Of a DNA stretch of 64,000 bases, positions 38,716 to 52,950 are shown piece after piece (the stretch's first letter is position 1; each line of letters opens with the position of its first letter). The stretch covers positions 64,001-128,000 of the IMG/VR virus record IMGVR_UViG_3300021399_000004; one strand, given 5' to 3'. A model generated the notes under the pieces. The model was not told the DNA's origin, did no database searches, and was given only the letters and a program-made list of their open reading frames with translations. The stretch is from a virus. The translations under genes and the position numbers were made by a program.

Positions 38716-38764
38716 GAACATGTTGAAAGCAGAAGGACACTGCTCAAACCGGAAAGGAAAGACT

Positions 38765-40364: not shown

Positions 40365-40640
40365 TTAGTCTGTTTCCTTCTCATTTCGATGATACAATGT
40401 GTTAATAGTTTTACCTTCAGGAAGAGCGGCCAACCTCTTAATCCGCACATATTGCCAACGGTCATGAAGCAAGATAGCAGATCGGTAATCATAGTAAGTA
40501 GTGATAGTGTCTGTTTTCTGTGAATTGTAGACTAAAACACGTTCATCGTTAGCGAGATATTCATACAGTCCGTTTTCATAATCTACACGACAGAAGTCGG
40601 GTTGATGATAGTACACTTCCTTGCGCTTATGACTTTTCAT
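40365..40640 (-). CDS. Hypothetical protein, 91 aa
   Basis: Track ORF. SD AAGAAAGGGG. Confidence 0.85.
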   Translation of the reverse strand: MKSHKRKEVYYHQPDFCRVDYENGLYEYLANDERVLVYNSQKTDTITTYYDYRSAILLHDRWQYVRIKRLAALPEGKTINTLYHRNEKETD

Positions 40641-40680
40641 ACTTAGTATCCCCTTTCTTGTTCGGAGAGTGTCCTTCTCT

Positions 40681-40770
40681 TTACTTGTTTTTGTTATTCA
40701 TCAGTTGAATGATTGAGCAGACAATGATTGCGACTTGACAGATGACGATGATGACGGTTCTGGTGGTCAT
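40681..40770 (-). CDS. Hydrophobic peptide, 29 aa
   Basis: SD AGAAAGGAAC. ATG to TAA. First ORF after promoter 40812..40840. Confidence 0.5.
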   Translation of the reverse strand: MTTRTVIIVICQVAIIVCSIIQLMNNKNK

Positions 40771-40811
40771 AGTGGCGTTCCTTTCTGTTTCTCTCTTTCA
40801 GGAACAACTGT

Positions 40812-40840
40812 ATTATAGCATAGGTTGTGGCGATTGTCAA
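40812..40840 (-). promoter_or_regulatory. SigA-type promoter
   Basis: TTGACA-17-TATAAT. Confidence 0.7.
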
Positions 40841-40849
40841 GAGTTTTTT

Positions 40850-41005
40850 TCAAACTGCGCGCCATTCTCCTGTATTTGCGTCTTTAATAAATTCAACCGC
40901 AGGAATATAAATGTAGTTATCTTCGATGATTTCATATTCGGGGAAAGCATTGGGATTGGTTTCAAGAGTGTTATTGATGAAGGTGATGATTTCTTCGCGC
41001 GTCAT
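40850..41005 (-). CDS. Hypothetical protein, 51 aa
   Basis: Conserved leader plus SD AGAAAGGGG. ATG to TGA. Below the track cutoff. Confidence 0.65.
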   Translation of the reverse strand: MTREEIITFINNTLETNPNAFPEYEIIEDNYIYIPAVEFIKDANTGEWRAV

Positions 41006-41053
41006 TTGGTTCCCCTTTCTGGTTTATGGTGTTTTCCTTCACCTTTCAATGAT

Positions 41054-41082
41054 AGTATATCATAAGATACATTTTTTGTCAA
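41054..41082 (-). promoter_or_regulatory. SigA-type promoter
   Basis: TTGACA-17-TATACT. Confidence 0.7.
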
Positions 41083-41119
41083 GGGGTTTTGAAAATTTTT
41101 TGGCGGGCCGGTCTGTAGG

Positions 41120-41139
41120 TTAGATGTTCAAACATCTAA
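41120..41139. repeat. 20-bp palindrome, copy 5/38
   Basis: Arms exact, centre TCAA. Confidence 0.95.
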
Positions 41140-41187
41140 ATTGGTTCCGGTTAAGCGTGTCTAACTCTTGCATAAAAGAAAAGCCCC

Positions 41188-42198
41188 TTAGTAGGGGCAG
41201 ACGGTGTTTGTGTATTCAGCAAGGCGGTGAAGTTTGTTAATAAGACTTGCGCAATAGTTGCTAATGGTGTCACTTTCCATTTTTGCGTCAAGGTAGGCAG
41301 AAATTGCGTTATAGACCGTTTCGCACTCTTCCATTTTAGGGGTTTTGCGGCGAGTGACAAAATCTACGGTGTCGCCAAGATCACGGAATGGGAAATATTT
41401 GATACCAATTGATACGGCGTGACGCTTTGCAATGCGGGAAAGAATATAAGTTTCAATAATGGCATCGTCCAGGGCTGTGTGACTCTCTATGAAATCATAT
41501 TTGTTACAGAGATATTGATAAGTAGTTTCGGCGCTGGTCTTGAAATAAGTTCCGGAGGCGGTCAGTAGGCCATGTTTGAGGCACTCGGTTTTATAGGTGG
41601 CATTATTCAGAAGATGAGAAGTAGCAAGCCCCCAAAGGTCAAAGAGCGGATAGGTTTCGCCGCGGAAAGTGAAGGCGTCCGGGTTAAAGTCTTTGTCAGA
41701 ATCTTTCTTGTAGGGTTCATTCGCAATCTTCCGGCAGAGATTTTTTTGAATCTGTTCCCACTTCTGATAGTCGGGGCTGTACAGTTTGCGAATATACAAT
41801 TCAGTGAACGGGATGGCCTTCTTAAAGTCAAACATTGCGTTAAAGGCTCCAACAGCGTCAACTTTGTGCAAGTCGTTAATGAAAATTTCCATGACCGTAT
41901 CCCACGGGGCAAGAACGGTTTCTTTATTTTCCAGCATTGCCAGATACCGAGGGCGCTTTTCCGCATAATAGGCGGTATTGAATACGGCGGGAACGGCGAA
42001 CGTTTCGGCAATCAGAAATTGCTTGTTTTCCAGAATATCGCCCTGCCGGTTAGTAATAGTCCAGCCAATATCGTAAATGAGCGGCCTTGCAATAGCGATC
42101 TTCTTCTTCTTTTCGGGATCACCGTCGGCAATTTCAGAGGCGAACGGGAGGGTAGCGGTTTCGGTATCGACAACCATGTACAGACGGCGCTTGCTCAT
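41188..42198 (-). CDS. DEDDh (DnaQ-like) 3'-5' exonuclease, 336 aa
   Basis: Exo motifs VVDTETA, AFNAMFDF and HTALDDAIIE. Paralog of 50141..50902. Confidence 0.85.
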   Translation of the reverse strand: MSKRRLYMVVDTETATLPFASEIADGDPEKKKKIAIARPLIYDIGWTITNRQGDILENKQFLIAETFAVPAVFNTAYYAEKRPRYLAMLENKETVLAPWDTVMEIFINDLHKVDAVGAFNAMFDFKKAIPFTELYIRKLYSPDYQKWEQIQKNLCRKIANEPYKKDSDKDFNPDAFTFRGETYPLFDLWGLATSHLLNNATYKTECLKHGLLTASGTYFKTSAETTYQYLCNKYDFIESHTALDDAIIETYILSRIAKRHAVSIGIKYFPFRDLGDTVDFVTRRKTPKMEECETVYNAISAYLDAKMESDTISNYCASLINKLHRLAEYTNTVCPY

Positions 42199-42249
42199 AC
42201 GGCAGAAGTCCTTTCCGGTTTGAAGTGTTTTCCTTCACTTGATGGGTAC

Positions 42250-42278
42250 AGTATAACATAAGCGGTGATAAAAGTCAA
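42250..42278 (-). promoter_or_regulatory. SigA-type promoter
   Basis: TTGACT-17-TATACT. Confidence 0.7.
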
Positions 42279-42308
42279 TAGGGAAATTTGATGGGCATAG
42301 CCGTATTA

Positions 42309-42328
42309 TTAGATGTTCAAACATCTAA
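42309..42328. repeat. 20-bp palindrome, copy 6/38 (between divergent promoters)
   Basis: Arms exact, centre TCAA. Confidence 0.95.
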
Positions 42329-42357
42329 AAATGTTGAAGGAAAATTAAAAATATGGA

Positions 42358-42385
42358 TTGACTTTTTTATAAAGTCGAGTATAAT
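42358..42385 (+). promoter_or_regulatory. SigA-type promoter
   Basis: TTGACT-16-TATAAT. Confidence 0.65.
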
Positions 42386-42411
42386 ATAATTGTACCAAGA
42401 GAAAGGAGCCA

Positions 42412-42921
42412 ATGAAGATGACTGATTACAAGCAGGAAGCCCGTAAATTTTTGAAAGAATTTTCTCCTGCGTTAGAAAACTATAATGGTTCACTGACGTA
42501 TATGTGGCAGAAAGCCAAAGAATATAATAAAGGTAGAACGAAAATAAATCAAATTGTTTGTAGAAATGGTGCTACTCGGATAGCTCTTATCGGCAAGGAT
42601 TTTGTTGTAAAGATGGATTATGATGCTGATGATGATATAAAAATGTTTGGTGGATGCGGGAAAGAATACGCTTTGTATAGAAAATGTGTTCGTGAAAATT
42701 CGCCTTATTTGCATTGTTTATTGGAAATTGCTAAAATTAAAGTAGGCAATCATTTCTATTACATCATGCCAAAAGCAAACTATTGCGGGCATACTTCCTT
42801 CTTAAATTTCAATTGTGAAGAAAGAAACTGGCTGTATAGTCATGTAAATGATTTACATAATGGAAATATTGGAAAATATAACGGTAAACCTGTGGTTATT
42901 GATTATGCCTGTCAGTTCTGA
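42412..42921 (+). CDS. Hypothetical protein, 169 aa, with kinase-like DLHNGN...VIDYA motif
   Basis: Track ORF. SD GAAAGGAG. Hairpin GCCTGTCAG-TT-CTGACAGGC at the stop. Confidence 0.8.
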   Translation: MKMTDYKQEARKFLKEFSPALENYNGSLTYMWQKAKEYNKGRTKINQIVCRNGATRIALIGKDFVVKMDYDADDDIKMFGGCGKEYALYRKCVRENSPYLHCLLEIAKIKVGNHFYYIMPKANYCGHTSFLNFNCEERNWLYSHVNDLHNGNIGKYNGKPVVIDYACQF

Positions 42922-42944
42922 CAGGCATTTTCATTATTTGTAGA

Positions 42945-42964
42945 TTAGATGTTTGAACATCTAA
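42945..42964. repeat. 20-bp palindrome, copy 7/38
   Basis: Arms exact, centre TTGA. Confidence 0.95.
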
Positions 42965-43007
42965 CCTCTCTGGAAAAAAAGAAAAGCGGCCGAAGCCGCT
43001 TTAAGTG

Positions 43008-43340
43008 TTAGCCCTTCACCGTGTAGGTGTTGGGCTTGCCCTCGGTCTTGACAAGCTCGTCAGCCCACAGGCGGGTAATGGCGTACTGCACATTGCCACG
43101 GGTTACGCCGGTGGGCAGGTCATTCTGGCAAGCCTCGTAAACCTCGCTAACCGTCAGCGACACAGGAGTGGACTTGAACACGTTGAACACAATGTCCTTC
43201 ATAGTCGTATACATGTCGGACTTGGCAGCCTTGACCTCGGCGCCACGGTTCAGCTCCTTGTCAACGGCGGCAAGCAGCTCGGTCTGATCGGGCATGGTAG
43301 ACAGGATGTTGCGGATAGCAGTCAGAGAAGCCTTCGTCAT
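43008..43340 (-). CDS. wHTH-like protein, paralog family member 1 of 3, 110 aa
   Basis: Track ORF, alignable with 46723..47061 and 49632..49976 (LT..E.Y......LP.G.T.G...Y..TR.W.DE). Confidence 0.85.
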   Translation of the reverse strand: MTKASLTAIRNILSTMPDQTELLAAVDKELNRGAEVKAAKSDMYTTMKDIVFNVFKSTPVSLTVSEVYEACQNDLPTGVTRGNVQYAITRLWADELVKTEGKPNTYTVKG

Positions 43341-43408
43341 ATGGATACCCTTTCTGGTTTGTGGGGTTTTCCTTCCCCTGTTTTGTTGTTGTCCCTTGGG
43401 ACACTCTT

Positions 43409-43437
43409 ATTGTACCACACTTTAGTGTGCTTGTCAA
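43409..43437 (-). promoter_or_regulatory. SigA-type promoter
   Basis: TTGACA-17-TACAAT. Confidence 0.65.
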
Positions 43438-43439
43438 GG

Positions 43440-43512
43440 GAGTTTGGAAACTTTTTTTGAGTTTCAACTACGACCTTGCAACGGTGGTGTGGCTTGGAGT
43501 TCCCTCCTGACA
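43440..43512 (-). ncRNA. Candidate short non-coding transcript or long leader from an orphan promoter
   Basis: Promoter 43519..43547 has no ORF before the next promoter. Its 5' end AAATACTGTCAGGAGGGAA is shared with the unit at 47145..47249. Contains hairpin GAAACT-N7-AGTTTC. Confidence 0.3.
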
Positions 43513-43518
43513 GTATTT

Positions 43519-43547
43519 ATTATAGCAAAGGTTTAAGAAAAAGTCAA
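43519..43547 (-). promoter_or_regulatory. SigA-type promoter (orphan, no ORF)
   Basis: TTGACT-17-TATAAT. Confidence 0.65.
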
Positions 43548-43566
43548 GCAGACTCTTTTTAATGCT

Positions 43567-43586
43567 TTAGATGTTTAAACATCTAA
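43567..43586. repeat. 20-bp palindrome, copy 8/38
   Basis: Arms exact, centre TTAA. Confidence 0.95.
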
Positions 43587-43602
43587 AATGGCTGGGAGGG
43601 CG

Positions 43603-43815
43603 TTAGCCCTCCCCAATAATAGCCTCAACCAGAGGATGCCACGTCTTGATATGAGTCACAATCTGTACATCATCAGGATCAATGAAGCCACCGCAACAGC
43701 CGCAGATAATGGTCTGAATTTCATCGCCCTTGTAGATAGCGATACCCGCAATCTCCTGCCGCAATTCGGCAGGCACAGTCAAGTCGTAGAAGGTAATTTG
43801 TTCAGTGTACATCAT
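43603..43815 (-). CDS. Hypothetical protein, 70 aa
   Basis: Track ORF. SD GAGGAGGA. Hairpin GGGAGGGC-GTTA-GCCCTCCC at the stop. Confidence 0.8.
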   Translation of the reverse strand: MMYTEQITFYDLTVPAELRQEIAGIAIYKGDEIQTIICGCCGGFIDPDDVQIVTHIKTWHPLVEAIIGEG

Positions 43816-43817
43816 AA

Positions 43818-44003
43818 TTAGTCATCCTCCTCTACAATGTAGTCCATCTCAATCAGGTGCTTGGTCGTGGCGGAGTAGGTCAGGAACTGAATGGTGTTGC
43901 CCATGTACAGGCAGATCTGCCAGTAGTCGTCACGCTTGACCTCAATGAAGTTGGTCTTGGGGTTATTCAGAAGGGCATGAATCATGTTTTCGTATTCGGT
44001 CAT
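43818..44003 (-). CDS. Hypothetical protein, 61 aa
   Basis: Track ORF. SD AAAGGAG. Confidence 0.8.
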   Translation of the reverse strand: MTEYENMIHALLNNPKTNFIEVKRDDYWQICLYMGNTIQFLTYSATTKHLIEMDYIVEEDD

Positions 44004-44051
44004 CGTGAATCTCCTTTGGTTTGGTGGGTGTCCTTCCCTTGGTACGGTCTT

Positions 44052-44080
44052 ATTATACCATAGCGGGATTTTATTGTCAA
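44052..44080 (-). promoter_or_regulatory. SigA-type promoter
   Basis: TTGACA-17-TATAAT. Confidence 0.7.
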
Positions 44081-44108
44081 GAGATATATGCAGGAAAGTT
44101 AAAGAATA

Positions 44109-44128
44109 TTAGATGTTTGAACATCTAA
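44109..44128. repeat. 20-bp palindrome, copy 9/38
   Basis: Arms exact, centre TTGA. Confidence 0.95.
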
Positions 44129-44143
44129 TATAAATAAGGCCCA

Positions 44144-44434
44144 TTAGGGCCGTAGGTAATCAACAATGATTTCACCAGTATCAGCAGCGATGACTTGCAC
44201 TCTCGTGCAGTCTTTATCTCCAAGATAAATAGCAACAGAATGAAGTGCAGATACAATATCAGTAGTAAATTCTTCATAGTATTCTTCGCCATAATAGCGA
44301 AGGAGACAATAGCCTGGAAGGTAACTCAGAGTAATAGTTTCAGTTGGTTTACAATTGTGAATGAAGTCCATGGCAGATTCACGGGTCGCAAACTCTCGGT
44401 CAAGTCCTGTCGTCTCATTTGTAATCTTCCACAT
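44144..44434 (-). CDS. Hypothetical protein, 96 aa
   Basis: Track ORF. SD GAAGGAGG. Hairpin GGCCC-ATTA-GGGCC at the stop. Confidence 0.85.
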   Translation of the reverse strand: MWKITNETTGLDREFATRESAMDFIHNCKPTETITLSYLPGYCLLRYYGEEYYEEFTTDIVSALHSVAIYLGDKDCTRVQVIAADTGEIIVDYLRP

Positions 44435-44461
44435 ATTTGTGTACCTCCTTCGTACAATGGT

Positions 44462-44490
44462 ATTATACTATGAGATTAGGCGTGTGTCAA
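44462..44490 (-). promoter_or_regulatory. SigA-type promoter
   Basis: TTGACA-17-TATAAT. Confidence 0.7.
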
Positions 44491-44508
44491 GAGGAGTTCT
44501 AATGGCTA

Positions 44509-44528
44509 TTAGATGTTTGAACATCTAA
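44509..44528. repeat. 20-bp palindrome, copy 10/38
   Basis: Arms exact, centre TTGA. Confidence 0.95.
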
Positions 44529-44547
44529 TCCAGAAAGGCGGTGGCGG

Positions 44548-44940
44548 TTACACCGCCACCTCACGGTCGAGATACTGGTTAGGGTCGTCCTTCTCTTCTT
44601 CTTCCTGAGCCTTGGCGGCCTTGGCGGCCCGGCGGGCCTTGTCAGCGGCAATCTTAGCCGCCTTTTCCTTAGCCTTGGCTTCGGCCTTCGCCGCCTTGGC
44701 GGCCTTTTCCTCTTTCCACGCTTCAGCCTCCACAAAGGGGTCAAACACACCGCCCTTGGCAGTCTCGGTGAAGGACTTGGACTTAACCGTGATCTCAGTC
44801 CAAACCTCCTGACCGTCTACCTCCTGCAACACGGCGAACGAGGCATCACCAAACTGCACAGCGGCAAGCTGTTCCAGAACGTCATGCAGGGCAGTCAGGG
44901 TCATGGCACGAGCGGCGGACTTGGCTTCCAGAATCTTCAT
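44548..44940 (-). CDS. Protein with Lys/Ala-rich histone-H1-like C-terminal tail, 130 aa (paralog of 48920..49285)
   Basis: SD AGAAAGGG 8 nt before ATG (MKILEAK). Tail sequence EEKAAKAAKAEAKAKEKAAKIAADKARRAAKAAKA. Confidence 0.8.
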   Translation of the reverse strand: MKILEAKSAARAMTLTALHDVLEQLAAVQFGDASFAVLQEVDGQEVWTEITVKSKSFTETAKGGVFDPFVEAEAWKEEKAAKAAKAEAKAKEKAAKIAADKARRAAKAAKAQEEEEKDDPNQYLDREVAV

Positions 44941-44993
44941 AGGCAATTCCCTTTCTGGTTTTTTGGGGTTTTCCTTCCCCTTGGTACATGCTT

Positions 44994-45022
44994 ATTATAC
45001 AGGATTCTTTGGTAAAAGTCAA
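44994..45022 (-). promoter_or_regulatory. SigA-type promoter
   Basis: TTGACT-17-TATAAT. Confidence 0.7.
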
Positions 45023-45041
45023 GAATTTTTAGGGAGATAAA

Positions 45042-45061
45042 TTAGATGTTTGAACATCTAA
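45042..45061. repeat. 20-bp palindrome, copy 11/38
   Basis: Arms exact, centre TTGA. Confidence 0.95.
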
Positions 45062-45093
45062 TTTAGGTTTTAGGTAAAAGCCCTTGCGGGCTT

Positions 45094-46146
45094 TTACTTA
45101 ATAAATTCTTCAAGATGATTTTGATATTCAATAGCAAATTGCTTCTGGGCCGGGTCGGTCACGTCAGCATTGAAACGAGTAAGATACTGGATAATTTTGC
45201 CTTTGTGCGAAACTTCACATGTAATGCAGGGGGTATCTGGGGCAGAAATTTTCCGTACAGTAACAATGTAAGTTTCGTTATGAAATACTTTCGACATATA
45301 GAGATCTTCTACACAATTCTCTTGCGCCTTTGCTTCAATATGAAATGCTTCTTTGTTAAGAATTGGGCGCGCTTCATAATCCCGATATTGGAAGTAGAGG
45401 AATGGCTTGTCATTATTTTTAGTTAAAATAGAATCATAATTTTCTTGCTTATAAATTTTATAAAGATAGACCATTTTAGCATAAGCGGTTAAGAAATTAT
45501 GCGGCACTTTCACTTCATTATACATCATTATACTCATTTTATAATAGTTAATAATCAATTCTTCAAATTTAGGCTGGGCATAATATACATATGGATTATC
45601 ATCAATATTAGCAGAGAATGAATCAACATTTTCAAGAATCATTCGTTGTAGTATGGAGATAACGTAAGTACCGGGGATTTCTTGATGATGATATGCGATA
45701 GAACGAGCAATCTTTTTTGCCCAGTCGGGAAATCTTTCATGAGCAGGATAATTTTTAGAAAAGTTATAGGCGGCGACGGCGTTATCGCTATACATGCCAT
45801 TATAGTTATCTTTGATAAAGCTAACAAGCTCTTTAGTCAGACGGGAAGAGGAATCTAAAGCACTAAAACTTTCCGGAACTAATCCAACGGATATAAGCTG
45901 TTCAAGCCTGTTTGCTCTTGCTCGGGTGTACTTTTCTTTATAAGTTGATTCGTTCATTCTATACATATAGATAACACGAGCAAAAATATTATTACATGTA
46001 AGATTATTATAAGTAAATACTTGTGGAATGGTCTTAACAGGTTTATTAGACTTGCCGATGAAATTTCCAGTAGTGATATGCCACTTGCCCATCATCTCAT
46101 TCGCATGATATGCTACAATGTAATCTTTCTCTTTGATGAACTCCAT
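45094..46146 (-). CDS. Hypothetical protein, 350 aa (PcfJ-like C-terminal region, tentative)
   Basis: Track ORF and the largest cassette gene. Terminator AAAGCCC-TTGC-GGGCTTT. Confidence 0.8.
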   Translation of the reverse strand: MEFIKEKDYIVAYHANEMMGKWHITTGNFIGKSNKPVKTIPQVFTYNNLTCNNIFARVIYMYRMNESTYKEKYTRARANRLEQLISVGLVPESFSALDSSSRLTKELVSFIKDNYNGMYSDNAVAAYNFSKNYPAHERFPDWAKKIARSIAYHHQEIPGTYVISILQRMILENVDSFSANIDDNPYVYYAQPKFEELIINYYKMSIMMYNEVKVPHNFLTAYAKMVYLYKIYKQENYDSILTKNNDKPFLYFQYRDYEARPILNKEAFHIEAKAQENCVEDLYMSKVFHNETYIVTVRKISAPDTPCITCEVSHKGKIIQYLTRFNADVTDPAQKQFAIEYQNHLEEFIK

Positions 46147-46194
46147 GCCGGCAACCTTTCTGGTTTGAGGTGTTTTCCTTCACCTTTCGAGAGT

Positions 46195-46223
46195 AGTATA
46201 CCACCGATTCAAAGGATTGTCAA
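46195..46223 (-). promoter_or_regulatory. SigA-type promoter
   Basis: TTGACA-17-TATACT. Confidence 0.7.
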
Positions 46224-46241
46224 TAAGGAAAAATTCATAGA

Positions 46242-46261
46242 TTAGATGTTCAAACATCTAA
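46242..46261. repeat. 20-bp palindrome, copy 12/38
   Basis: Arms exact, centre TCAA. Confidence 0.95.
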
Positions 46262-46274
46262 CCTTAAAAGCCCG

Positions 46275-46562
46275 TTAGGGCTTTTTCGAGAAGTTCTTTT
46301 TTACATATGCCCGCAAGGTTTTTTCTGCCTGTTCGGGCGTGCGGCGACGAGTTGTGACAACATTCCAACAATCAAATGCCCCTGCTTCTTCACCGTATTC
46401 ATATATATCAGCGGCGCGCCAGGTATCATCGCCCCACCATTCTGTCATGGCATTTGCGTCAAACAAAGCGTAAGCTCCTTCCCACCCACAGTCCCAAGTG
46501 TCTACTACGGAAAGACAAACATACTGATGATTAGGAGTGCGGATTACTTCATGAAGATACAT
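46275..46562 (-). CDS. Hypothetical Trp-rich protein, 95 aa
   Basis: Internal ATG (MYLHEV) after the conserved leader and SD AGAAAGGA. Confidence 0.8.
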   Translation of the reverse strand: MYLHEVIRTPNHQYVCLSVVDTWDCGWEGAYALFDANAMTEWWGDDTWRAADIYEYGEEAGAFDCWNVVTTRRRTPEQAEKTLRAYVKKNFSKKP

Positions 46563-46613
46563 TTTGAATCCTTTCTGGTTTTCGGGATTTTCCTTTCCCT
46601 TTGGAACGCTTTT

Positions 46614-46642
46614 AGTATAGCATAAGATGATTTGGAAATCAA
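46614..46642 (-). promoter_or_regulatory. SigA-type promoter
   Basis: TTGATT-17-TATACT. Confidence 0.6.
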
Positions 46643-46660
46643 GTCTAATTTTTGATGAGT

Positions 46661-46680
46661 TTAGATGTTTTAACATCTAA
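46661..46680. repeat. 20-bp palindrome, copy 13/38
   Basis: Arms exact, centre TTTA. Confidence 0.95.
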
Positions 46681-46722
46681 TTAGAAGGCAAAGAAAAAGC
46701 GCCCGTAGGCGCTTTGCAGGGA

Positions 46723-47061
46723 TTACGCCCTGCGGTAGCAGTTGACGCCCTTGACGCCCTCAACCTTGACGATGGCGTCACCCCACAGGCGGGTCAGACC
46801 ATAGCTGACCTTGCCCTTGGTAAAGCCCTCGGGGAGCTTGTCAGCGCACTCGTCATAGATCTCAGCGGCAGTCAGCGGGGCAGTGGTCATCGCAAGGACT
46901 TCCAGCACAGCGGCCTTCGCTTCGTCATAGGCGGACTTGCGCTCAGCCTTGGCGGCTTCGCCACGGTGCAGTTCGGCGTTGAGTTCGTCCATGATGGCGG
47001 TATCAGAGTAGCCAGTCTCGGTCAGGTAAGCAACAACAGCGGACAGAGTAGCCTTCTTCAT
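46723..47061 (-). CDS. wHTH-like protein, paralog 2 of 3, 112 aa
   Basis: Track ORF. SD AGAAGGAG. Confidence 0.85.
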   Translation of the reverse strand: MKKATLSAVVAYLTETGYSDTAIMDELNAELHRGEAAKAERKSAYDEAKAAVLEVLAMTTAPLTAAEIYDECADKLPEGFTKGKVSYGLTRLWGDAIVKVEGVKGVNCYRRA

Positions 47062-47113
47062 ACGGGAATCTCCTTCTGGTTTGGTGGGTTTTCCTTCCCT
47101 TGATTACGTGGTA

Positions 47114-47142
47114 ATTATACCACAGATTTTGTTGGCTGTCAA
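47114..47142 (-). promoter_or_regulatory. SigA-type promoter
   Basis: TTGACA-17-TATAAT. Confidence 0.7.
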
Positions 47143-47144
47143 GA

Positions 47145-47249
47145 GGAAGTTTTAAGTTTCGCAAACTTTTTTTTAGCACTTTGCGAAGGTAGAATTTTTA
47201 AGGCGCGGTGTCAAGGTGCTCGCTTGTCTTGTGCCCTTCCCTCCTGACA
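47145..47249 (-). ncRNA. Candidate short non-coding transcript or long leader from an orphan promoter
   Basis: No ORF between promoter 47256..47284 and the next promoter. 5' end shared with 43440..43512. Contains hairpin TTCGCAAA-N13-TTTGCGAA. Confidence 0.3.
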
Positions 47250-47255
47250 GTATTT

Positions 47256-47284
47256 ATTATAGCCGATTCTTTGATAAAAGTCAA
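47256..47284 (-). promoter_or_regulatory. SigA-type promoter (orphan, no ORF)
   Basis: TTGACT-17-TATAAT. Confidence 0.65.
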
Positions 47285-47292
47285 ACAGTTAA

Positions 47293-47312
47293 TTAGATGT
47301 TTAAACATCTAA
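47293..47312. repeat. 20-bp palindrome, copy 14/38
   Basis: Arms exact, centre TTAA. Confidence 0.95.
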
Positions 47313-47326
47313 CTAGAAGAGGCACC

Positions 47327-47518
47327 TTAAAGGTGCTCTGCATGAACTTTGCGGCAGTATGGGCAATAAATATCAACGAAGTCATCATCTCCGTCAATGC
47401 AGACAGGTTTCAAATAAGTATAATCTACCATGAAGTAATGGCCACAATGGGGGCAACTGGTTTCATCATAGTAATAGGTAACTTCTTCGTAGTTCTTCTT
47501 CTGATACTTGCTCATCAT
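47327..47518 (-). CDS. Zinc-ribbon protein, 63 aa
   Basis: Track ORF. CPHCG...CPYC. SD GGAGGG. Confidence 0.8.
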   Translation of the reverse strand: MMSKYQKKNYEEVTYYYDETSCPHCGHYFMVDYTYLKPVCIDGDDDFVDIYCPYCRKVHAEHL

Positions 47519-47568
47519 TTGTTAAGCCCTCCGTGTTTTCATTTGATTTTTAAGATACATAATTGTCA

Positions 47569-47757
47569 TTACGTTTTCCCGTTAATGCAGATAATTTCAT
47601 TTACGGTAGGATCAGTAACTATGAGGACTTTCTTGCAATTAATCAGAGCGCCATGCCCAGACAGGGCAATCTTGAGAATATTGAAAGGCATGGGGTTTGG
47701 CGACCGAACAATGAACTTGTCTGCAAATTCATACACATACTTGATATGATTCTCCAT
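47569..47757 (-). CDS. Hypothetical protein, 62 aa
   Basis: Second ATG (MENHIKY) of the track ORF is the one correctly spaced from AGAAAGGA. Confidence 0.75.
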   Translation of the reverse strand: MENHIKYVYEFADKFIVRSPNPMPFNILKIALSGHGALINCKKVLIVTDPTVNEIICINGKT

Positions 47758-47795
47758 TCGGGATTCCATCCTTTCTGTTCCCTTGGAACAATTGC

Positions 47796-47824
47796 ATTAT
47801 AGCATAAAATTAAATTGCTGTCAA
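47796..47824 (-). promoter_or_regulatory. SigA-type promoter
   Basis: TTGACA-17-TATAAT. Confidence 0.7.
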
Positions 47825-47841
47825 GAGGCCTGGAAATAATA

Positions 47842-47861
47842 TTAGATGTTAAAACATCTAT
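47842..47861. repeat. 20-bp palindrome, copy 15/38 (last base changed)
   Basis: TTAGATGT-TAAA-ACATCTAT. Confidence 0.9.
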
Positions 47862-47902
47862 ATAATTTAGACTCGTTCTACAACAAGTCTAAATTTATTT
47901 CT

Positions 47903-48211
47903 TTATACTGTGCGCCTTTCAATAAAGTTCTTAAGTAGTTCTGCCAACTCATGAGCAGTATGCATACTCACATCATCATAATCCCATGGGAATCCCATAG
48001 TTTCCCACATTCCTATAGCATTACCATATGAGCCATCATGGAGGATCGCATCTCCAGGAAGTCCTTCAAAGGTAATTTGAAAACCATTCTGGTAAAACCA
48101 AATGTCTTCAATCTTAATATTATATCGATCGAGTTCAGTGAGAAAAGTATGCAGACTATTGACATAAGTCATGTTAAGGGGAACACGAGTAAATTCAGAG
48201 TAAGTACGCAT
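47903..48211 (-). CDS. Hypothetical protein, 102 aa
   Basis: Track ORF. SD AAAAGGAG. Confidence 0.85.
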   Translation of the reverse strand: MRTYSEFTRVPLNMTYVNSLHTFLTELDRYNIKIEDIWFYQNGFQITFEGLPGDAILHDGSYGNAIGMWETMGFPWDYDDVSMHTAHELAELLKNFIERRTV

Positions 48212-48261
48212 AGATTTTTCTCCTTTTGGTTTAGAGTTTTCCTTCTCCTAATTACAATTGG

Positions 48262-48290
48262 AGTATACTATATTTATGGTATTTTGTCAA
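48262..48290 (-). promoter_or_regulatory. SigA-type promoter
   Basis: TTGACA-17-TATACT. Confidence 0.7.
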
Positions 48291-48297
48291 CATAAAA

Positions 48298-48317
48298 TTA
48301 GATGTTCAAACATCTAA
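48298..48317. repeat. 20-bp palindrome, copy 16/38
   Basis: Arms exact, centre TCAA. Confidence 0.95.
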
Positions 48318-48329
48318 TCTACAAGGCCC

Positions 48330-48767
48330 TCACAAGAGGGTCTTGAGAATTTCAATAATACGGTCAGGGGTATAAGCCGTGTCATGCCAATCATCACGGT
48401 TTTTCTGTTCATCATCGAACAGGATTCCGCCGCCGCAAGTTAAATATTTATTAGTTCCATATCTGACAACTTTGATCTCGTCCCATTCAACCGAGGGCAA
48501 GTGATGAATCAGCCATTCCCTTTTTGCCATTTCTACGGCGGTATTAAATGCTTCGCTTCCGGTTTTAGAAGTCCAGCTAATAATACCAATTTTCCAGCCC
48601 TTGTCCTGCAAGCGATTGAGCAGCCTTGCAAGAAGGCTAAAGTTCAGCATGACTTTAGCGTTTTTGTAGGGGAAAGTATCCTCTCTATTCAGATAGTCAA
48701 GCCACCCTTCCACCTCATACAGGGCGGCGATTGTCCCATCCATGTCAAACCAAATTTCTTTCTTCAT
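48330..48767 (-). CDS. HAD-family 5'(3')-deoxyribonucleotidase-like protein, 145 aa
   Basis: DMDGT motif at the N-terminus and FDDE later in the sequence. Confidence 0.75.
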   Translation of the reverse strand: MKKEIWFDMDGTIAALYEVEGWLDYLNREDTFPYKNAKVMLNFSLLARLLNRLQDKGWKIGIISWTSKTGSEAFNTAVEMAKREWLIHHLPSVEWDEIKVVRYGTNKYLTCGGGILFDDEQKNRDDWHDTAYTPDRIIEILKTLL

Positions 48768-48818
48768 CTTGTTTATCCTTTCTGGCTTTAGAGATTCTTT
48801 CCTTTTGGGAACAATGAC

Positions 48819-48847
48819 AGTATAGCATACATTAAAAAAGAAGTCAA
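48819..48847 (-). promoter_or_regulatory. SigA-type promoter
   Basis: TTGACT-17-TATACT. Confidence 0.7.
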
Positions 48848-48866
48848 GGTAGAAAATGAAATAAGA

Positions 48867-48886
48867 TTAGATGTTTGAACATCTAA
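48867..48886. repeat. 20-bp palindrome, copy 17/38
   Basis: Arms exact, centre TTGA. Confidence 0.95.
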
Positions 48887-48919
48887 ATTTTAGGACGAGG
48901 CGTTAGACGCCTCTAATGG

Positions 48920-49285
48920 TTACTGAGTATTTTCCTTCAACTTCTGCTTGGCAGCACGCTTGGCATTGTCGGCCGCAATTTTCGCCGCTTTCTTGGCGTC
49001 GGCTGCCGCCTTCTTCGCCTTCTTCTCTTCCATGTCAAGGCGGTACTCTTCGGCGGCGGCGTAGGCATCGTACTCAATGTAACCGCCCTGTCCGTCACGA
49101 GTACCACGGGGGATAGATACCTTGACAAGTGCAAACTTCTCATTCTGTGCGCTGTCAAGTACGGGGATGGCGATTTCGTTTCCGCTAACGTCAATAGCGT
49201 CTACGTCAAAGTGGGCGGCAAGCGCCTGGCGGATCACGTCAAGAACCTCATTGCGGATGGGGGTGTTCAGTTCTTCCTTGCTCAT
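48920..49285 (-). CDS. Protein with Lys/Ala-rich H1-like tail, 121 aa (paralog of 44548..44940)
   Basis: Tail sequence EEKKAKKAAADAKKAAKIAADNAKRAAKQK. Confidence 0.85.
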   Translation of the reverse strand: MSKEELNTPIRNEVLDVIRQALAAHFDVDAIDVSGNEIAIPVLDSAQNEKFALVKVSIPRGTRDGQGGYIEYDAYAAAEEYRLDMEEKKAKKAAADAKKAAKIAADNAKRAAKQKLKENTQ

Positions 49286-49330
49286 ACGTTACTCCTTTTG
49301 GTTTAGAGTTTTCCTTCTCTCATCGTGTAC

Positions 49331-49359
49331 AGTATACCATAGTTAGAAAGAAAAGTCAA
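49331..49359 (-). promoter_or_regulatory. SigA-type promoter
   Basis: TTGACT-17-TATACT. Overlaps the stop of 49356..49505. Confidence 0.7.
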
Positions 49360-49505
49360 GGGGTATCGTCGCAAAAGCTGGTGAAAATTCCAAAGATACC
49401 CAGCATTATAAATGCAAGCACGCCGAAGATGGTGTCTCCAAAGATTGCAAATGCGGCCAATAGTGCAACGATGATCCCAAAGATCAAGTACCCGATAGCG
49501 TTCAT
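49356..49505 (-). CDS. Two-TM membrane peptide, 49 aa
   Basis: SD AAAGGAGG before the internal ATG (MNAIGY). Confidence 0.7.
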   Translation of the reverse strand: MNAIGYLIFGIIVALLAAFAIFGDTIFGVLAFIMLGIFGIFTSFCDDTP

Positions 49506-49533
49506 ACTTGACTCCTCCTTTATTTTCATGTAT

Positions 49534-49562
49534 ATTATAGCATAAAATTTTATAGTTGTCAA
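49534..49562 (-). promoter_or_regulatory. SigA-type promoter
   Basis: TTGACA-17-TATAAT. Confidence 0.7.
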
Positions 49563-49569
49563 ATAATTA

Positions 49570-49589
49570 TTAGATGTTTAAACATCTAA
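49570..49589. repeat. 20-bp palindrome, copy 18/38
   Basis: Arms exact, centre TTAA. Confidence 0.95.
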
Positions 49590-49631
49590 CTACTGCTGAT
49601 TAAAAAAAGAGGGCCGAAGCCCTCTTGTGGA

Positions 49632-49976
49632 TTACGCCTTGCGGCTATACAGGGTGGCGCCCTTGCTACCCTTGTCCGCAATCAGTTCGTCTACCCAATA
49701 GCGGGTCATGGCGTACTGCATCTTGCCCTTGGTGAAACCATCGGGCAGCTGGTCAGCAATGCTCTCATACAGCTCACTGACCGTTACGGGGCCAACAGCA
49801 TCCGCAAGACCATTCATCACGACATCATGCGCCTCAGCGTACAGCTCGCGATTCGCCTGCGCCTTGACGGCGTTCTTGTTCAGCTCAGCCTCCAGCTCAG
49901 CCTTGATTTCATCGAGGTTGGTCACAGTCTCGCCGTTGAGGTAGGAAACGAGGGACATCATGGTGGACTTCTTCAT
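49632..49976 (-). CDS. wHTH-like protein, paralog 3 of 3, 114 aa
   Basis: Internal ATG (MKKSTMM) after the conserved leader and SD AAAGGAG. Confidence 0.85.
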   Translation of the reverse strand: MKKSTMMSLVSYLNGETVTNLDEIKAELEAELNKNAVKAQANRELYAEAHDVVMNGLADAVGPVTVSELYESIADQLPDGFTKGKMQYAMTRYWVDELIADKGSKGATLYSRKA

Positions 49977-50048
49977 ATGGGGTTCTCCTTTGGTTTGTGA
50001 GGTTTTCCTTCCTCTATTTTTTCTGTCCCCTCTCTTGGGAACAATTGT

Positions 50049-50077
50049 ATTATAGCAAAAGTCATAGTAAAAGTCAA
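50049..50077 (-). promoter_or_regulatory. SigA-type promoter
   Basis: TTGACT-17-TATAAT. Confidence 0.7.
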
Positions 50078-50096
50078 GCAATAAATCAAGAAATAA

Positions 50097-50116
50097 TTAG
50101 ATGTTTAAACATCTAA
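50097..50116. repeat. 20-bp palindrome, copy 19/38
   Basis: Arms exact, centre TTAA. Confidence 0.95.
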
Positions 50117-50140
50117 CCTAAGAGAGAAAAGGGGCGGAGG

Positions 50141-50902
50141 TTAGCCCTCCGCCGTAGTAAATGAATATGTATCATTCTTTACATACTTTTTAATATATCG
50201 TCCTTTGATAACCTGTACTCCGTCAATTTTAATTGTGAAGGGTTTAATCTGTTGCCGTTTCAAAATCTTTTTTACTTCATAATCATGATTCCATTCTGCG
50301 CCACGTTTGATACATTCAAGCAAAATATTGCTTTCAATTTGTGCATCATACAGGCCCATGTGCTTTTCTATAAAATCATATTTGCTTTGGATATATTGAT
50401 ATACAGATTCAGCGCTGCCGCTATAATTGCCCGTATCTGTAAAGCGCTGATTTACTTCACAAAATTGCTTGTACTCGTCTGTATTTGTGATAAAAGCGCT
50501 TGCATAGCCCCAAATATCATGAATGGCTACCGTATCAAAAGGATTCATTGTTCTGAACCAATCACAATTATAGGTTAAGACTTTATCATCGAAAGTTGAG
50601 TTATAGGCATATGCATCAGTGATATTAAATGCTTTAATATCTCGTCTGATAGCTTGCATGATATAGCCCCACTTGTCCATGATCGCCAGCTTGCTTCTCA
50701 TTAGCGTGATATAGTCGGGGCGCTTGTCTTTATAATAGGCGCTTTCAAAAAGAGGGAGATTGTGCCAGACCTGTTCTACAATGTAATGCGCCTGCTTGAC
50801 CAGCTCATTCGATTCAGTATTGATTATTACATAACCAATATCATAGCAGAAGCATTTTTCGAGGCCGGTTGTCTCCGTGTCAAATACCATGATGAATCCC
50901 AT
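50141..50902 (-). CDS. DEDDh (DnaQ-like) 3'-5' exonuclease, 253 aa
   Basis: Motifs VFDTETT, AYNSTFDD and HMGLYDAQIE. Paralog of 41188..42198. Confidence 0.85.
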   Translation of the reverse strand: MGFIMVFDTETTGLEKCFCYDIGYVIINTESNELVKQAHYIVEQVWHNLPLFESAYYKDKRPDYITLMRSKLAIMDKWGYIMQAIRRDIKAFNITDAYAYNSTFDDKVLTYNCDWFRTMNPFDTVAIHDIWGYASAFITNTDEYKQFCEVNQRFTDTGNYSGSAESVYQYIQSKYDFIEKHMGLYDAQIESNILLECIKRGAEWNHDYEVKKILKRQQIKPFTIKIDGVQVIKGRYIKKYVKNDTYSFTTAEG

Positions 50903-50946
50903 ATTGTGTAGCTCCTTTCAAGTATATGGTTTTGGGGAACGGTAGT

Positions 50947-50975
50947 ATTATAACATGACTAAAGATATGTGTCAA
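50947..50975 (-). promoter_or_regulatory. SigA-type promoter
   Basis: TTGACA-17-TATAAT. Confidence 0.7.
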
Positions 50976-50992
50976 TAGCCTGGAAGATTAAA

Positions 50993-51012
50993 TTAGATGT
51001 TTAAACATCTAA
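50993..51012. repeat. 20-bp palindrome, copy 20/38
   Basis: Arms exact, centre TTAA. Confidence 0.95.
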
Positions 51013-51035
51013 CTCTATGTTAAAGGCTGGGGTGG

Positions 51036-51233
51036 TTAATCCCAGTCTTCGTCGTCCGCGTTCAGTACAACATAACCATTGCAATCCTGCACATCGGTGA
51101 CACGCGGCCACAGCAATTCAAAATCATTGTAGTGCGGGCCATATCCCTCATTCTGCCAAAAGGTATCGGGGATCCGAACAATGCTGTCCTGGGGCAGCTT
51201 GAGCAGGGAAGCAATCAGTTCACGTACAGTCAT
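51036..51233 (-). CDS. Hypothetical protein, 65 aa
   Basis: Track ORF. Confidence 0.8.
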   Translation of the reverse strand: MTVRELIASLLKLPQDSIVRIPDTFWQNEGYGPHYNDFELLWPRVTDVQDCNGYVVLNADDEDWD

Positions 51234-51256
51234 CTTTTTTTACCTCTTTCTTTTTC

Positions 51257-51324
51257 TTTGTCGGGAGGGAGCGTGAGTCTCATCCACACTGTAGGCTTCC
51301 GAGGAATGCGTTTTCCCTCCCGAC
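51257..51324 (-). promoter_or_regulatory. Long 5'-UTR stem-loop (12-bp stem, about 44-nt loop)
   Basis: TGTCGGGAGGGA (51257-51268) pairs with TCCCTCCCGACA (51313-51324), between the -10 and the SD of 51036..51233. Confidence 0.6.
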
Positions 51325-51330
51325 AATGGT

Positions 51331-51359
51331 ATAATACCATATTACGGGAAAATTGTCAA
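51331..51359 (-). promoter_or_regulatory. SigA-type promoter
   Basis: TTGACA-17-TATTAT. Confidence 0.6.
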
Positions 51360-51388
51360 GAGGTTTTTTGAACTCGGAAAAAGGCTGT

Positions 51389-51408
51389 TTAGATGTTCAA
51401 ACATCTAA
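51389..51408. repeat. 20-bp palindrome, copy 21/38
   Basis: Arms exact, centre TCAA. Confidence 0.95.
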
Positions 51409-51449
51409 CCTGGTAAAATGGAATGGGCGGCTTTTCGCCGCCCGGTATC

Positions 51450-51686
51450 TTATCGATAATAATTCTGATTGTAGCGCTCATAAGCGCTCATTTTGCGGTA
51501 TTCATTGTATTCCAGCTCACTAATTTCTTTGCCCTGGATAATGGCGCGGGTGTGCTTAACGCTGGGCATCCGCTTGGCCCTGTCCATAGCTTCCAGCAGG
51601 TTTTCAGCTTTGATGGCGAAGGTGATTTCAGTGCTGTGGCCAATGCCGCAATGCCCCCGGTGGCAAGTAACCTTGTAATACTTCAT
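51450..51686 (-). CDS. Hypothetical protein, 78 aa
   Basis: Track ORF. SD AAAGGAG. Confidence 0.85.
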   Translation of the reverse strand: MKYYKVTCHRGHCGIGHSTEITFAIKAENLLEAMDRAKRMPSVKHTRAIIQGKEISELEYNEYRKMSAYERYNQNYYR

Positions 51687-51732
51687 GGTTTTTTCTCCTT
51701 TCTTTCGGTGGGTTTCCTCTCACCGTGATTAG

Positions 51733-51761
51733 AGTATAACATAATGGAGGATAAAAGTCAA
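51733..51761 (-). promoter_or_regulatory. SigA-type promoter
   Basis: TTGACT-17-TATACT. Confidence 0.7.
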
Positions 51762-51780
51762 TAGTGCATATTGAGTTCAT

Positions 51781-51800
51781 TTAGATGTTTGAACATCTAA
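51781..51800. repeat. 20-bp palindrome, copy 22/38
   Basis: Arms exact, centre TTGA. Confidence 0.95.
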
Positions 51801-51828
51801 CCTAAAGGAAACAAAAAGGGGCGGAGGT

Positions 51829-52134
51829 TTATCCCTCCGCCTCAATCTTTTTGATCTTATTTCGCAATTCATTAATCTGCTGGTTCAACGCTTTAATCTG
51901 TGCTTGCTTGAGTCTTTTTGCCCGTTCCTTTTCCCAAAAATCCCACGTCATAACGATTTTATAATCTACGTCATGCGTCAACACTTTTGCGCGGAACAGC
52001 GTCATCAAAGAACAGGCGTGATTTTCATGCAGAATGTTTTCAGCTTCTTTTAAGTTCATCGTGCCTTTTTCAAGGCGGGGCAGCAGCAGGGCCATGCCGT
52101 AGGCAACAGCGGGGTTATTGTTTTTCTCTACCAT
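51829..52134 (-). CDS. Hypothetical protein with coiled-coil tail, 101 aa
   Basis: Track ORF. Confidence 0.85.
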   Translation of the reverse strand: MVEKNNNPAVAYGMALLLPRLEKGTMNLKEAENILHENHACSLMTLFRAKVLTHDVDYKIVMTWDFWEKERAKRLKQAQIKALNQQINELRNKIKKIEAEG

Positions 52135-52174
52135 CGTTCCAATCTCCTTTTATGTATTTTCTGGGAACGTCTAT

Positions 52175-52942: not shown

Positions 52943-52950
52943 GATGGAAT

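Follow-up and report, generated by a model that had tools for sequence, protein, structure and literature searches.

What does one short leader do when it recurs immediately before the start codons of a whole set of early phage genes? The 64,000-nucleotide (nt) stretch analysed here, positions 64,001 to 128,000 of the IMG/VR virus record IMGVR_UViG_3300021399_000004 (the window), raises this question with a run of about 38-39 small expression cassettes on its minus strand, at about 38.1-57.3 kb. The order on the coding strand of a cassette is palindrome, promoter, short leader, Shine-Dalgarno sequence (SD) and ATG. Two types of leader are found, a hairpin (type A) and the element studied here (type B), whose coding-strand consensus is (G)GNG-AAGGAAAA-CNC(C), 0-3 nt, AAACCAGAAAGG.

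An earlier interpretation made without database searches (the sequence-only reading) had proposed that this element is a shared cis-acting RNA module at the ribosome-binding site (RBS) of a subset of genes. That proposal is borne out by a covarying stem, by 14 copies in the window and by a fixed spacing to the start codon. Moreover, the hairpin loop pairs with the AAACC box that precedes the SD, and the two are predicted to form a minimal H-type pseudoknot. The element most likely controls translation of its downstream genes, as judged from its position and conservation.

A covarying stem and a loop that pairs with the box before the SD

A covariance model (R1), trained on 29 instances of which five are from the window, was run over all 64 kb on both strands with filters off. 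It returned 14 matches with E < 0.01, of which 13 are minus-strand and one is plus-strand. The matches are confined to 38.7-50.0 kb, and R1 found none in 1-38 kb or past 51 kb. All 11 instances that the sequence-only reading had listed with confidence are among them, each where it had been placed on the minus strand, with a hairpin and an AAACC-SD box just upstream of an ATG. The component motifs are also overrepresented in the window: AAGGAMAA occurs 22 times (7.3 ± 2.8 expected) and AAACCRRAA 12 times (4.1 ± 1.9 expected), and for each of them 0 of 100 shuffles was as high. We read the element as RNA because, on the coding strand, it lies between promoter and SD; G-U and A-C combinations are too few of either to assign the strand of the stem from their counts.

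The stem covaries, as had been suggested. In the window copies, 97.5% of the stem cells are paired, versus 75% in shuffles, and no shuffle out of 500 scores as high. Double-sided changes are present in all four pairs, and sliding the partner cuts pairing to 25-55%. A larger set comprised 112 distinct 20-mers chosen by loop and box only, with the stem not consulted. The three loop-proximal pairs of these hairpins are standard in 98-100% of cells (96-97% Watson-Crick, with GC, CG, AU and UA all used), and the fourth is standard in 81% (79% Watson-Crick). Their stem covariation score is 0.71, versus 0.17 when shuffled and 0.04-0.26 when slid. The alignments used are of fixed-length elements; when elements of variable length were aligned with MAFFT, the 3' arm was split, and that alignment was set aside.

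The ten window copies with an exact loop agree at all eight loop positions (8/8), and their flanks have a mean pairwise identity of only 0.35 (promoter spacers), 0.34 (the 8 nt that precede the ATG) and 0.41 (the first 30 nt of coding sequence). With flanks this unrelated (0.34-0.41) and with paired changes in the stems, recent duplication of whole leaders, the explanation that might have accounted for the similarity, is excluded.

A second allele, first met among homologues of the downstream genes that apparently lacked the element, has the loop AACGACA with the box AAACGAGAAAGG. In an unbiased census of hairpins before [AG]GAAAGG, AAGG-type loops are always accompanied by ACC, and AACGACA is always accompanied by ACG. 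The matched C-loop/G-box allele has 30 database matches, 19 of them with a stem, and these use five different stems. The mixed loop/box combinations have 8 and 36 matches, none with a stem. Control patterns for two other conceivable alleles of the second helix, GC/GC and CC/GG, have a stem in 1 of 62 and 0 of 43 matches, which is the chance rate, and neither allele was found.

Loop position 3 and box position 5 share mutual information equal to the full entropy, and no other coupling was found outside the stem. Over all loci examined, this pair is G:C in 220 cases, C:G in 16, A:U in one and U:A in one, with three mismatches, one of which is the degenerate window copy at 40652. Twins with the same stem and linker that differ only at these two positions are found in three backgrounds (GGG/CCCU, GGAG/CUCC and AGUC/GACU), and the AGUC/GACU stem also carries the U:A version. 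The pair is antiparallel with an invariant neighbour pair, loop G4:box C4. Because loop position 3 covaries with the second C of AAACC and the mixed forms are stemless, loop and box pair with each other. Thus, the sequence-only reading was right that both are conserved, but they are not two separate conserved sequences.

The predicted fold begins with a first stem (S1) of about 3-5 bp and of any sequence, followed by a first loop (L1) of AA, a second stem (S2) of GG:CC, a connector of 3-5 A or C nt and an A-rich linker. Within the loop consensus A-A-G-G-A-(A/C)-A-(A), bases 3-4 (GG) face the CC of AAACC. The linker from the stem to this CC consists of N0-5 and an invariant AAA, about 4-6 nt in all. 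The SD, AGAAAGG, starts at the base directly after the last box pair of the predicted pseudoknot, and the whole element spans ~32 nt.

The element keeps its distance from the start codon rather than from the promoter. From the loop end to the start codon there are 27.2 ± 1.7 nt (n = 224), and the start codon lies 7-10 nt past the SD. Measured from the -10 hexamer, the spacing is 16.2 ± 4.2 nt, with outliers at 31-40 nt, several of which lie behind another hairpin. No promoter is present within 70 nt of 18 of 229 elements, and in the window the copies at 43378 and 50014 follow another hairpin and that at 40652 follows a stop codon. Since the spacing to the start codon is constant even without a nearby promoter, the element belongs to the RBS.

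Copies in the window, their setting and their distribution

The window copies are listed below. Two of them depart from the pattern. Copy 13 begins directly after the stop codon of the upstream open reading frame (ORF) and is therefore internal to a transcript, and match 14 has the box without the hairpin. The loop variant AAGGACA recurs 18-31 times in other phages.

Matches to the covariance model in the window. Coordinates of minus-strand features run from high to low within a feature; aa, amino acids; wHTH, winged helix-turn-helix.
Match	Span (strand)	Stem and loop	Linker, pseudoknot partner and SD or box	Start codon and gene	Bits	Remarks
1	41014..41045 (-)	5' arm GGTG 41043-41040, loop AAGGAAAA 41039-41032, 3' arm CACC 41031-41028	linker AUAAA, CC 41022-41021, SD AGAAAGG 41020-41014	ATG 41005, 51-aa ORF	55.7	
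2	42210..42241 (-)	AAGTG/CACTT, loop 42235-42228	CC 42218-42217, SD GGAAAGG	ATG 42198, 336-aa DEDD-type exonuclease-like protein	49.7	
3	43349..43380 (-)	GGGG/CCCC 43378-43375 and 43366-43363, loop 43374-43367	CC 43357-43356, SD 43355-43349	ATG 43340, wHTH paralogue, 110 aa	54.8	type-A hairpin upstream, so not at 5' end
4	44013..44041 (-)	GGG/CCC, loop variant AAGGACA 44035-44029	CC 44019-44018, SD AAAGGAG	ATG 44003, 61 aa	20.5	
5	44950..44982 (-)	GGGG/CCCC, loop 44976-44969	CC 44958-44957	ATG 44940, H1-like tail protein, 130 aa	44.8	
6	46155..46186 (-)	AGGTG/CACCT, loop 46180-46173	CC 46163-46162	ATG 46146, 350-aa PcfJ-like protein	56.9	
7	46570..46601 (-)	GGGA/UCCC, loop 46595-46588	CC 46578-46577	ATG 46562, 95 aa	52.3	
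8	47072..47102 (-)	GGG/CCC, loop 47096-47089	CC 47079-47078, SD AGAAGGAG	ATG 47061, wHTH paralogue, 112 aa	38	
9	48222..48250 (-)	GGAG/CUCU, loop 48244-48237	CC 48229-48228, SD AAAAGGAG	ATG 48211, 102 aa	22.4	one G-U pair
10	49294..49321 (-)	AGAG/CUCU, loop 49316-49309	CC 49301-49300	ATG 49285, H1-like tail protein, 121 aa	20.8	
11	49987..50016 (-)	GAGG/CCUC, loop 50010-50003	CC 49993-49992, SD AAAGGAG	ATG 49976, wHTH paralogue, 114 aa	37	type-A hairpin upstream
12	38727..38757 (+)	AGCAG/CUGCU, loop AAGGACA 38733-38739	CC 38749-38750, SD GGAAAGG	ATG 38765	33	sole plus-strand copy
13	40652..40682 (-)	AGAG/CUCU 40680-40677 and 40669-40666, loop AAGGACA 40676-40670	box AACAAGAAAGG	ATG 40640	21.7	degenerate; G.A mismatch at tertiary pair
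14	48777..48805 (-)		box AAAGCCAGAAAGG only	ATG 48767, nucleotidase-like protein, 145 aa	18.1	weak; behind type-A-like hairpin, without AAGGAAAA hairpin

Three looser versions had also been proposed. The one at 38722-38762 (+), with loop AAGGACA and stem GCAG/CTGC, scores 33 bits and does belong to the family. The one at 51694-51723 does not, with E = 3.5, a 10-nt loop and no ACC box, and that at 60800-60840 goes undetected at E ≤ 10. A different leader hairpin, CUGCCGG-AAUUAGGAAAA-CCGGCAG, is present at 60838-60806 (-) before a AAAAAGGAGG SD; it lies in a GC-rich island at 60000-62000 (54%, vs about 40% elsewhere). Of the genes said to share the element, the three wHTH paralogues and the two H1-like genes indeed have it. 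Of the two exonuclease-like genes, that at 42198-41188 carries it and that at 50902-50141 does not.

The exact pattern AAGGAAAA-N3-9-AAACCAGAAAGG was found in at least 119 IMG/VR stretches, on contigs of 4-216 kb. Of its 196 distinct instances, nearly all follow a TTGACA/TATAAT promoter at 9-14 nt and have an ATG 7-12 nt further on. In 809 kb sampled from these IMG/VR phage loci, R1 gave 283 matches with E < 0.001. A scan of 596 Gb of genomes, one genome per species, returned only 104 stretches, and 96 of the 139 matches in them have a stem of at least 3 bp. With few exceptions, the stem-bearing matches are on contigs of metagenome-assembled genomes (MAGs) of Clostridia from rumen and gut, including Acutalibacteraceae, Oscillospiraceae, Christensenellales and Ruminococcus. 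These contigs often hold several copies each, always before small phage-like genes. Most of the stemless matches come from unrelated taxa, among them Ruegeria and Maribacter; they provide a built-in chance control. On four of the Clostridia MAG contigs (L120, L127, L169 and L200), the element stands before a family of proteins of ~125-155 aa, several in tandem, and no sigma-70-type promoter is present within 55-60 nt of it; there it is apparently used inside operons of a different kind of mobile element. The element is a portable leader of phages, and of some other mobile elements, of gut and rumen Clostridia.

Among 366 downstream genes, 110 belong to a wHTH family of ~114 aa that includes the three window paralogues and that has only a weak, sub-threshold match to DUF6958. 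Another 72 belong to a family of ~112 aa with a lysine/alanine-rich H1-like tail, which includes two window genes; 29 are DEDD-type exonuclease-like, and 22 are in a family of ~138 aa from the promoter-less MAG contexts. The remainder form 99 small clusters, so that over 100 families are represented in all.

No described family was matched. Rfam 15 gave nothing at gathering score in the whole window, nothing with E < 0.5 in 38-58 kb and no listed match on the element hairpins. A distant blastn search of INPHARED with 41.0-48.9 kb returned no relative, only chance-level matches of 70-130 bp to Pseudomonas and Xanthomonas phages. Full-text literature searches for AAACCAGAAAGG and for the cassette palindrome gave unrelated primer-type matches or none.

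The cassette promoter is a near-consensus TTGACA-N17-TATAAT with an extended TG, 10-25 nt beyond a perfect palindrome of 18-20 bp, TAGATGTTYRAACATCTA(A), which can be written TTAGATGTT-YR-AACATCTAA. The palindrome has 39 matches in the window (0.01 expected). Its sites, at 38136-57281 (for example, 41121-41138 and 46243-46260), are 10-25 nt upstream of the -35 hexamer in almost every early cassette, and isolated half-sites TTAGATGT are scattered in an AT-rich stretch at 57.3-59.1 kb. This pattern suggests a site for a DNA-binding protein rather than a terminator. Of the 162 other viral loci examined, which likewise have the leader element, none contains the palindrome, so the two are independent.

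Type-A leaders (for example, 47790-47770, 40250-40230, 54010-53990 and 54620-54598, all minus strand) have a hairpin with a conserved stem, GUUCC/GGAAC (or GUCC/GGAC or GUAC/GUAC), and a variable loop, and start ~6 nt after the -10 hexamer. In some cassettes a type-A hairpin is followed by a type-B element. At 43480-43585 and 47180-47311 (-), an extra upstream promoter is followed by GUCAGGAGGGAA... and ~100 nt of non-coding sequence, and then by the promoter of a type-B leader; these may be short non-coding transcripts or tandem-promoter arrangements. Three or four cassettes at 56430-57238 (-), with palindrome and consensus promoter, have no ORF and are 21% GC. They share the motif AUGCGAGCUGG / AUGCAAGCUG (at 56596, 56834 and 57093) and may be small RNAs. 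One ORF-less promoter-driven cassette contains UUUUCCU (56863-56857, -), which is complementary to 7 nt of the AAGGAAAA loop. As the sole match, and one not above chance, it is a weak lead as a hint of an antisense regulator.

The early cassettes use the standard code. Late and structural genes on the plus strand (1-24383, 36367-37788 and 61106-63335) contain in-frame TAG; with TAG read as sense, short ORFs become ORFs of up to 2109 aa. The ORF at 22848-24383, which runs across five TAGs, then encodes a 509-aa endolysin with SpoIID, NlpC/P60 and PG_binding_1 domains. No suppressor transfer RNA is present in the window. The stretch at 57300-58900 is extremely AT-rich, low-complexity DNA, unusual within a phage genome. 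It holds an imperfect long (ATATACATAT)n microsatellite (~58150-58500) as well as a run of (ATT)n around 58590-58620. An origin, a terminal region or a fault of assembly could account for this stretch.

A proposed translation-initiation module and the alternatives to it

The reading we favour, with a probability of about 0.45, is that the element is a portable cis-acting translation-initiation module that would hold and cap the SD. The fold would act on initiation in cis. By engaging the bases beside the SD, a compact fold would keep the SD single-stranded and insulated from whatever ORF follows, and an SD kept open regardless of the ORF fits a portable leader that stands before more than 100 gene families. 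The end of the pseudoknot helix would also offer a stacking platform for the SD:anti-SD duplex. The 16S ribosomal RNA (rRNA) of the B. subtilis type ends in ...CCUCCUUUCU-3', and its last seven bases are complementary to AGAAAGG. Loop bases G3G4 would then continue the 16S rRNA strand across a nick, and the SD duplex would stack on the pseudoknot. Leaders that are not of type B show a similar arrangement, which we count in favour of this reading: a helix is flush against AGAAAGG, the gap from hairpin to AGAAAGG peaking at 0 (21 of 79 across phages, mostly GUUCC/GGAAC). The module would be an activator or an insulator of initiation, like the loop-to-pre-SD pseudoknot of ColIb-P9 repZ, and its exposed loop would be a natural attack point for a regulator. 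We infer both the stacking and the direction of the effect on translation.

Several observations weigh against this reading. The structure is predicted from covariation, which is its only support, and folding energies of the leaders, which say little for a hairpin this small, give no signal relative to shuffles (z about 0). The leader folds show no evident inhibitory structure for a pseudoknot to relieve, and the minimum-free-energy folds leave the SD open. The S2 helix is only 2 bp long, and one of its pairs, G4:C4, is invariant. In a minority of copies the SD register is moved by 1-2 nt (SD AAAAGGAG or AAAGGAG); therefore, not every copy can stack flush on the 16S 3' end. The complementarity itself is reckoned on a B. 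subtilis-type 16S end, and the host's own may differ. Finally, no more than 14 of the ~39 cassettes have the element, and genes of just two protein families follow half of all its copies. Subset use with such a family bias is regulon-like and would equally suit a trans-acting regulator.

Such a regulator is the main rival to a cis-acting module. The element would then be a translational operator, in which pseudoknot, invariant A's and SD bind one phage or host RNA-binding regulator that represses or times an early DNA-metabolism regulon. The unpaired A's of loop and linker are invariant over hundreds of copies while the stems vary, which speaks for an operator, although base triples within a compact pseudoknot explain them equally well. 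The element is restricted to a subset of cassettes, clustered at 38.7-50 kb. It precedes small DNA-binding-type proteins of the wHTH and H1-like tail families in 182 of 366 cases, and 84 of 97 wHTH homologues retain it, including those below 40% identity; most of the rest carry the AACGACA allele. The binder could be one of these downstream-encoded DNA-binding proteins, acting autogenously like T4 gp32 and gp43, which provide a precedent (PMC3014915). Tight spacing to the RBS is also what a ribosome-blocking repressor would need. However, Pfam and PHROGs revealed no known RNA-binding domain among 30 early proteins of the window, and the loci examined yielded neither CsrA nor Hfq nor Csp. Moreover, contigs of 20-216 kb carry the element, as do MAG contexts without a promoter, which gives no sign of one phage factor common to them all. 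We regard an operator as unlikely, though it is the best placed of the alternatives.

Less probable again, with odds that we consider low, is that the element is a 5' stabiliser of mRNA, in which the fold and a ribosome on the strong SD block decay by RNase J1/RNase Y in a Firmicute host, as in aprE or SP82. In about 90% of copies the -10 hexamer is 9-14 nt ahead of the element, which puts its first base 2-8 nt from where transcripts probably begin, and the extended TG -10 promoters and the SpoIID/NlpC-P60/PG-binding endolysin point to a Gram-positive-like host. But it is the start codon and not the 5' end to which the spacing is constant, given the copies behind a hairpin, behind a stop codon or without a promoter. 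A fixed one-base distance between pseudoknot and SD would be needless for blocking decay, and the hairpin is thermodynamically weak.

A tiny riboswitch-like sensor with the topology of the preQ1-I aptamer, whose ligand would stabilise the 2-bp helix, seems quite improbable. The two share a hairpin, a 2-nt L1, a short second paired region (P2) formed with the 3' tail, an A-rich third loop (L3) and an SD beside P2; a 2-bp P2 would need stabilising, and the unpaired A's are invariant. On the other hand, no Rfam family, PreQ1 included, matches at E ≤ 5, the loop, unlike a binding pocket, has a 3' part of variable length (3-5 nt) and variable A/C content, the over 100 unrelated downstream families have no metabolic theme, and the SD is not sequestered by the fold. 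Membership of the preQ1-I family itself is ruled out by the missing PreQ1 match at that threshold and by the absence of a queuosine-gene context.

Least credible of all is a direct reading of the loop AAGGA as an SD-like or GGA motif, that is, as a standby site (as the sequence-only reading had suggested), a STAB-SD, or, on the pattern of the hag and fliC leaders, the first CsrA site of a pair whose second member covers the SD at a distance of ~23 nt. The main allele does have AAGGA in the hairpin loop and AAAGG(A) at the SD, and the spacing resembles that of BS1/BS2 in B. subtilis hag (bioRxiv 10.1101/2021.05.06.443043). However, the equally conserved AACGACA allele (at least 19 copies, with the same promoters and gene families) has no AGG, GGA or anti-SD complementarity, and its C is compensated by a box G inside the mRNA, with A:U and U:A versions as well. 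Furthermore, the base after AAAGG is A in only 99 of 182 copies (54%; G 53, C 17, T 13), and no csrA was found in the loci examined. Standby-site and STAB-SD readings are ruled out by these variant alleles, which lack anti-SD complementarity and are compensated within the mRNA. A CsrA site is ruled out because the loops AACGACA, AAAGAAA and AAUGGCA have no in-register GGA and because csrA, hfq and csp are absent from the loci examined.

Two further candidates were rejected. A lambda-type nut site (boxB) is ruled out by a position tied to the start codon and by 14 copies per genome, each directly before an SD. A dyad or operator at the DNA level is ruled out because the arms vary freely with a fixed spacer and the covarying positions share nothing else palindromic.

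To return to the translation-initiation module, its natural variation amounts to a ready compensatory-mutation experiment for a tertiary pair that touches the SD. If the fold enhances or gates initiation, it would be among the smallest natural translation-control structures known, a portable RBS part for Clostridia, and a handle on early-gene control in uncultivated, stop-codon-recoded phages of gut and rumen. In metagenomes, its sequence can also be used as a tag to find the phages and mobile elements of this group. A more specific and rather doubtful proposal is that it is an undescribed phage-borne, 32-nt SD-capping pseudoknot, flush at its end with the RBS, that either stacks under the SD:anti-SD helix and boosts initiation, or is a common switch by which some factor or ligand governs the early regulon in TAG-recoded Clostridia phages.

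Comparison with known systems

The preQ1-I aptamer (RF00522) is an H-type fold of about 34 nt with a hairpin of 4-5 bp, a 2-nt L1, a short P2 between loop and 3' tail, an A-rich L3 and an SD beside P2. The element is in the same size class and has the same predicted H-type topology. It differs in having no similarity in sequence or by covariance model, no conserved ligand-pairing pyrimidine, an SD that is not sequestered and genes unrelated to queuosine.

Firmicute 5' stabilisers (aprE, SP82 and the cryIIIA STAB-SD) combine a short leader, a 5'-proximal structure and a strong SD in Gram-positive bacteria. The element, in contrast, is tied to the start codon and not to the 5' end, and the variant alleles indicate that its loop is no SD mimic.

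In phage T4, the gp43 operator is a hairpin and a sequence overlapping the RBS, and that of gp32 is a pseudoknot upstream of the RBS; through each of them a nucleic-acid-binding protein controls translation (PMC3014915). As with gene 43 and gene 32, early DNA-metabolism genes of a phage stand behind a hairpin or pseudoknot and a sequence that reaches the RBS. However, the T4 operators are autogenous, serve a single gene and have known binders, whereas the element is multi-copy (14 per genome, >100 gene families) and has no binder candidate among 30 early proteins of the window.

The nearest arrangement studied by experiment is that of IncI-alpha/IncB/IncL-M rep genes, in which bases of an upstream hairpin loop likewise pair with the sequence immediately 5' of the SD. 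In ColIb-P9 repZ, the hairpin loop contributes GGCG, which pairs with a CGCC that adjoins the SD on its upstream side; this pairing activates translation, and an antisense RNA competes for the loop (PMC4705826). The plasmid hairpin is far upstream and its helix is GGCG:CGCC, whereas the phage element lies within 32 nt and has a second helix of 2 bp. The plasmid pseudoknot needs translation and termination of a leader peptide; the phage element has no upstream ORF, and most elements, being 2-8 nt from the transcript start, leave no room for one. In the plasmid, the pseudoknot relieves a stable structure that masks a weak SD and a GUG start, whereas the phage SD is strong and unmasked. The plasmid has an antisense RNA, whereas the search of the phage window gave only the one 7-nt anti-loop match, not above chance. 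As far as our searches show, the family, its compactness, its copy number and its distribution in phages have no counterpart in Rfam or in the literature searched; a structure of the 5' untranslated region at the RBS with a loop-to-pre-SD pseudoknot is a known kind of element.

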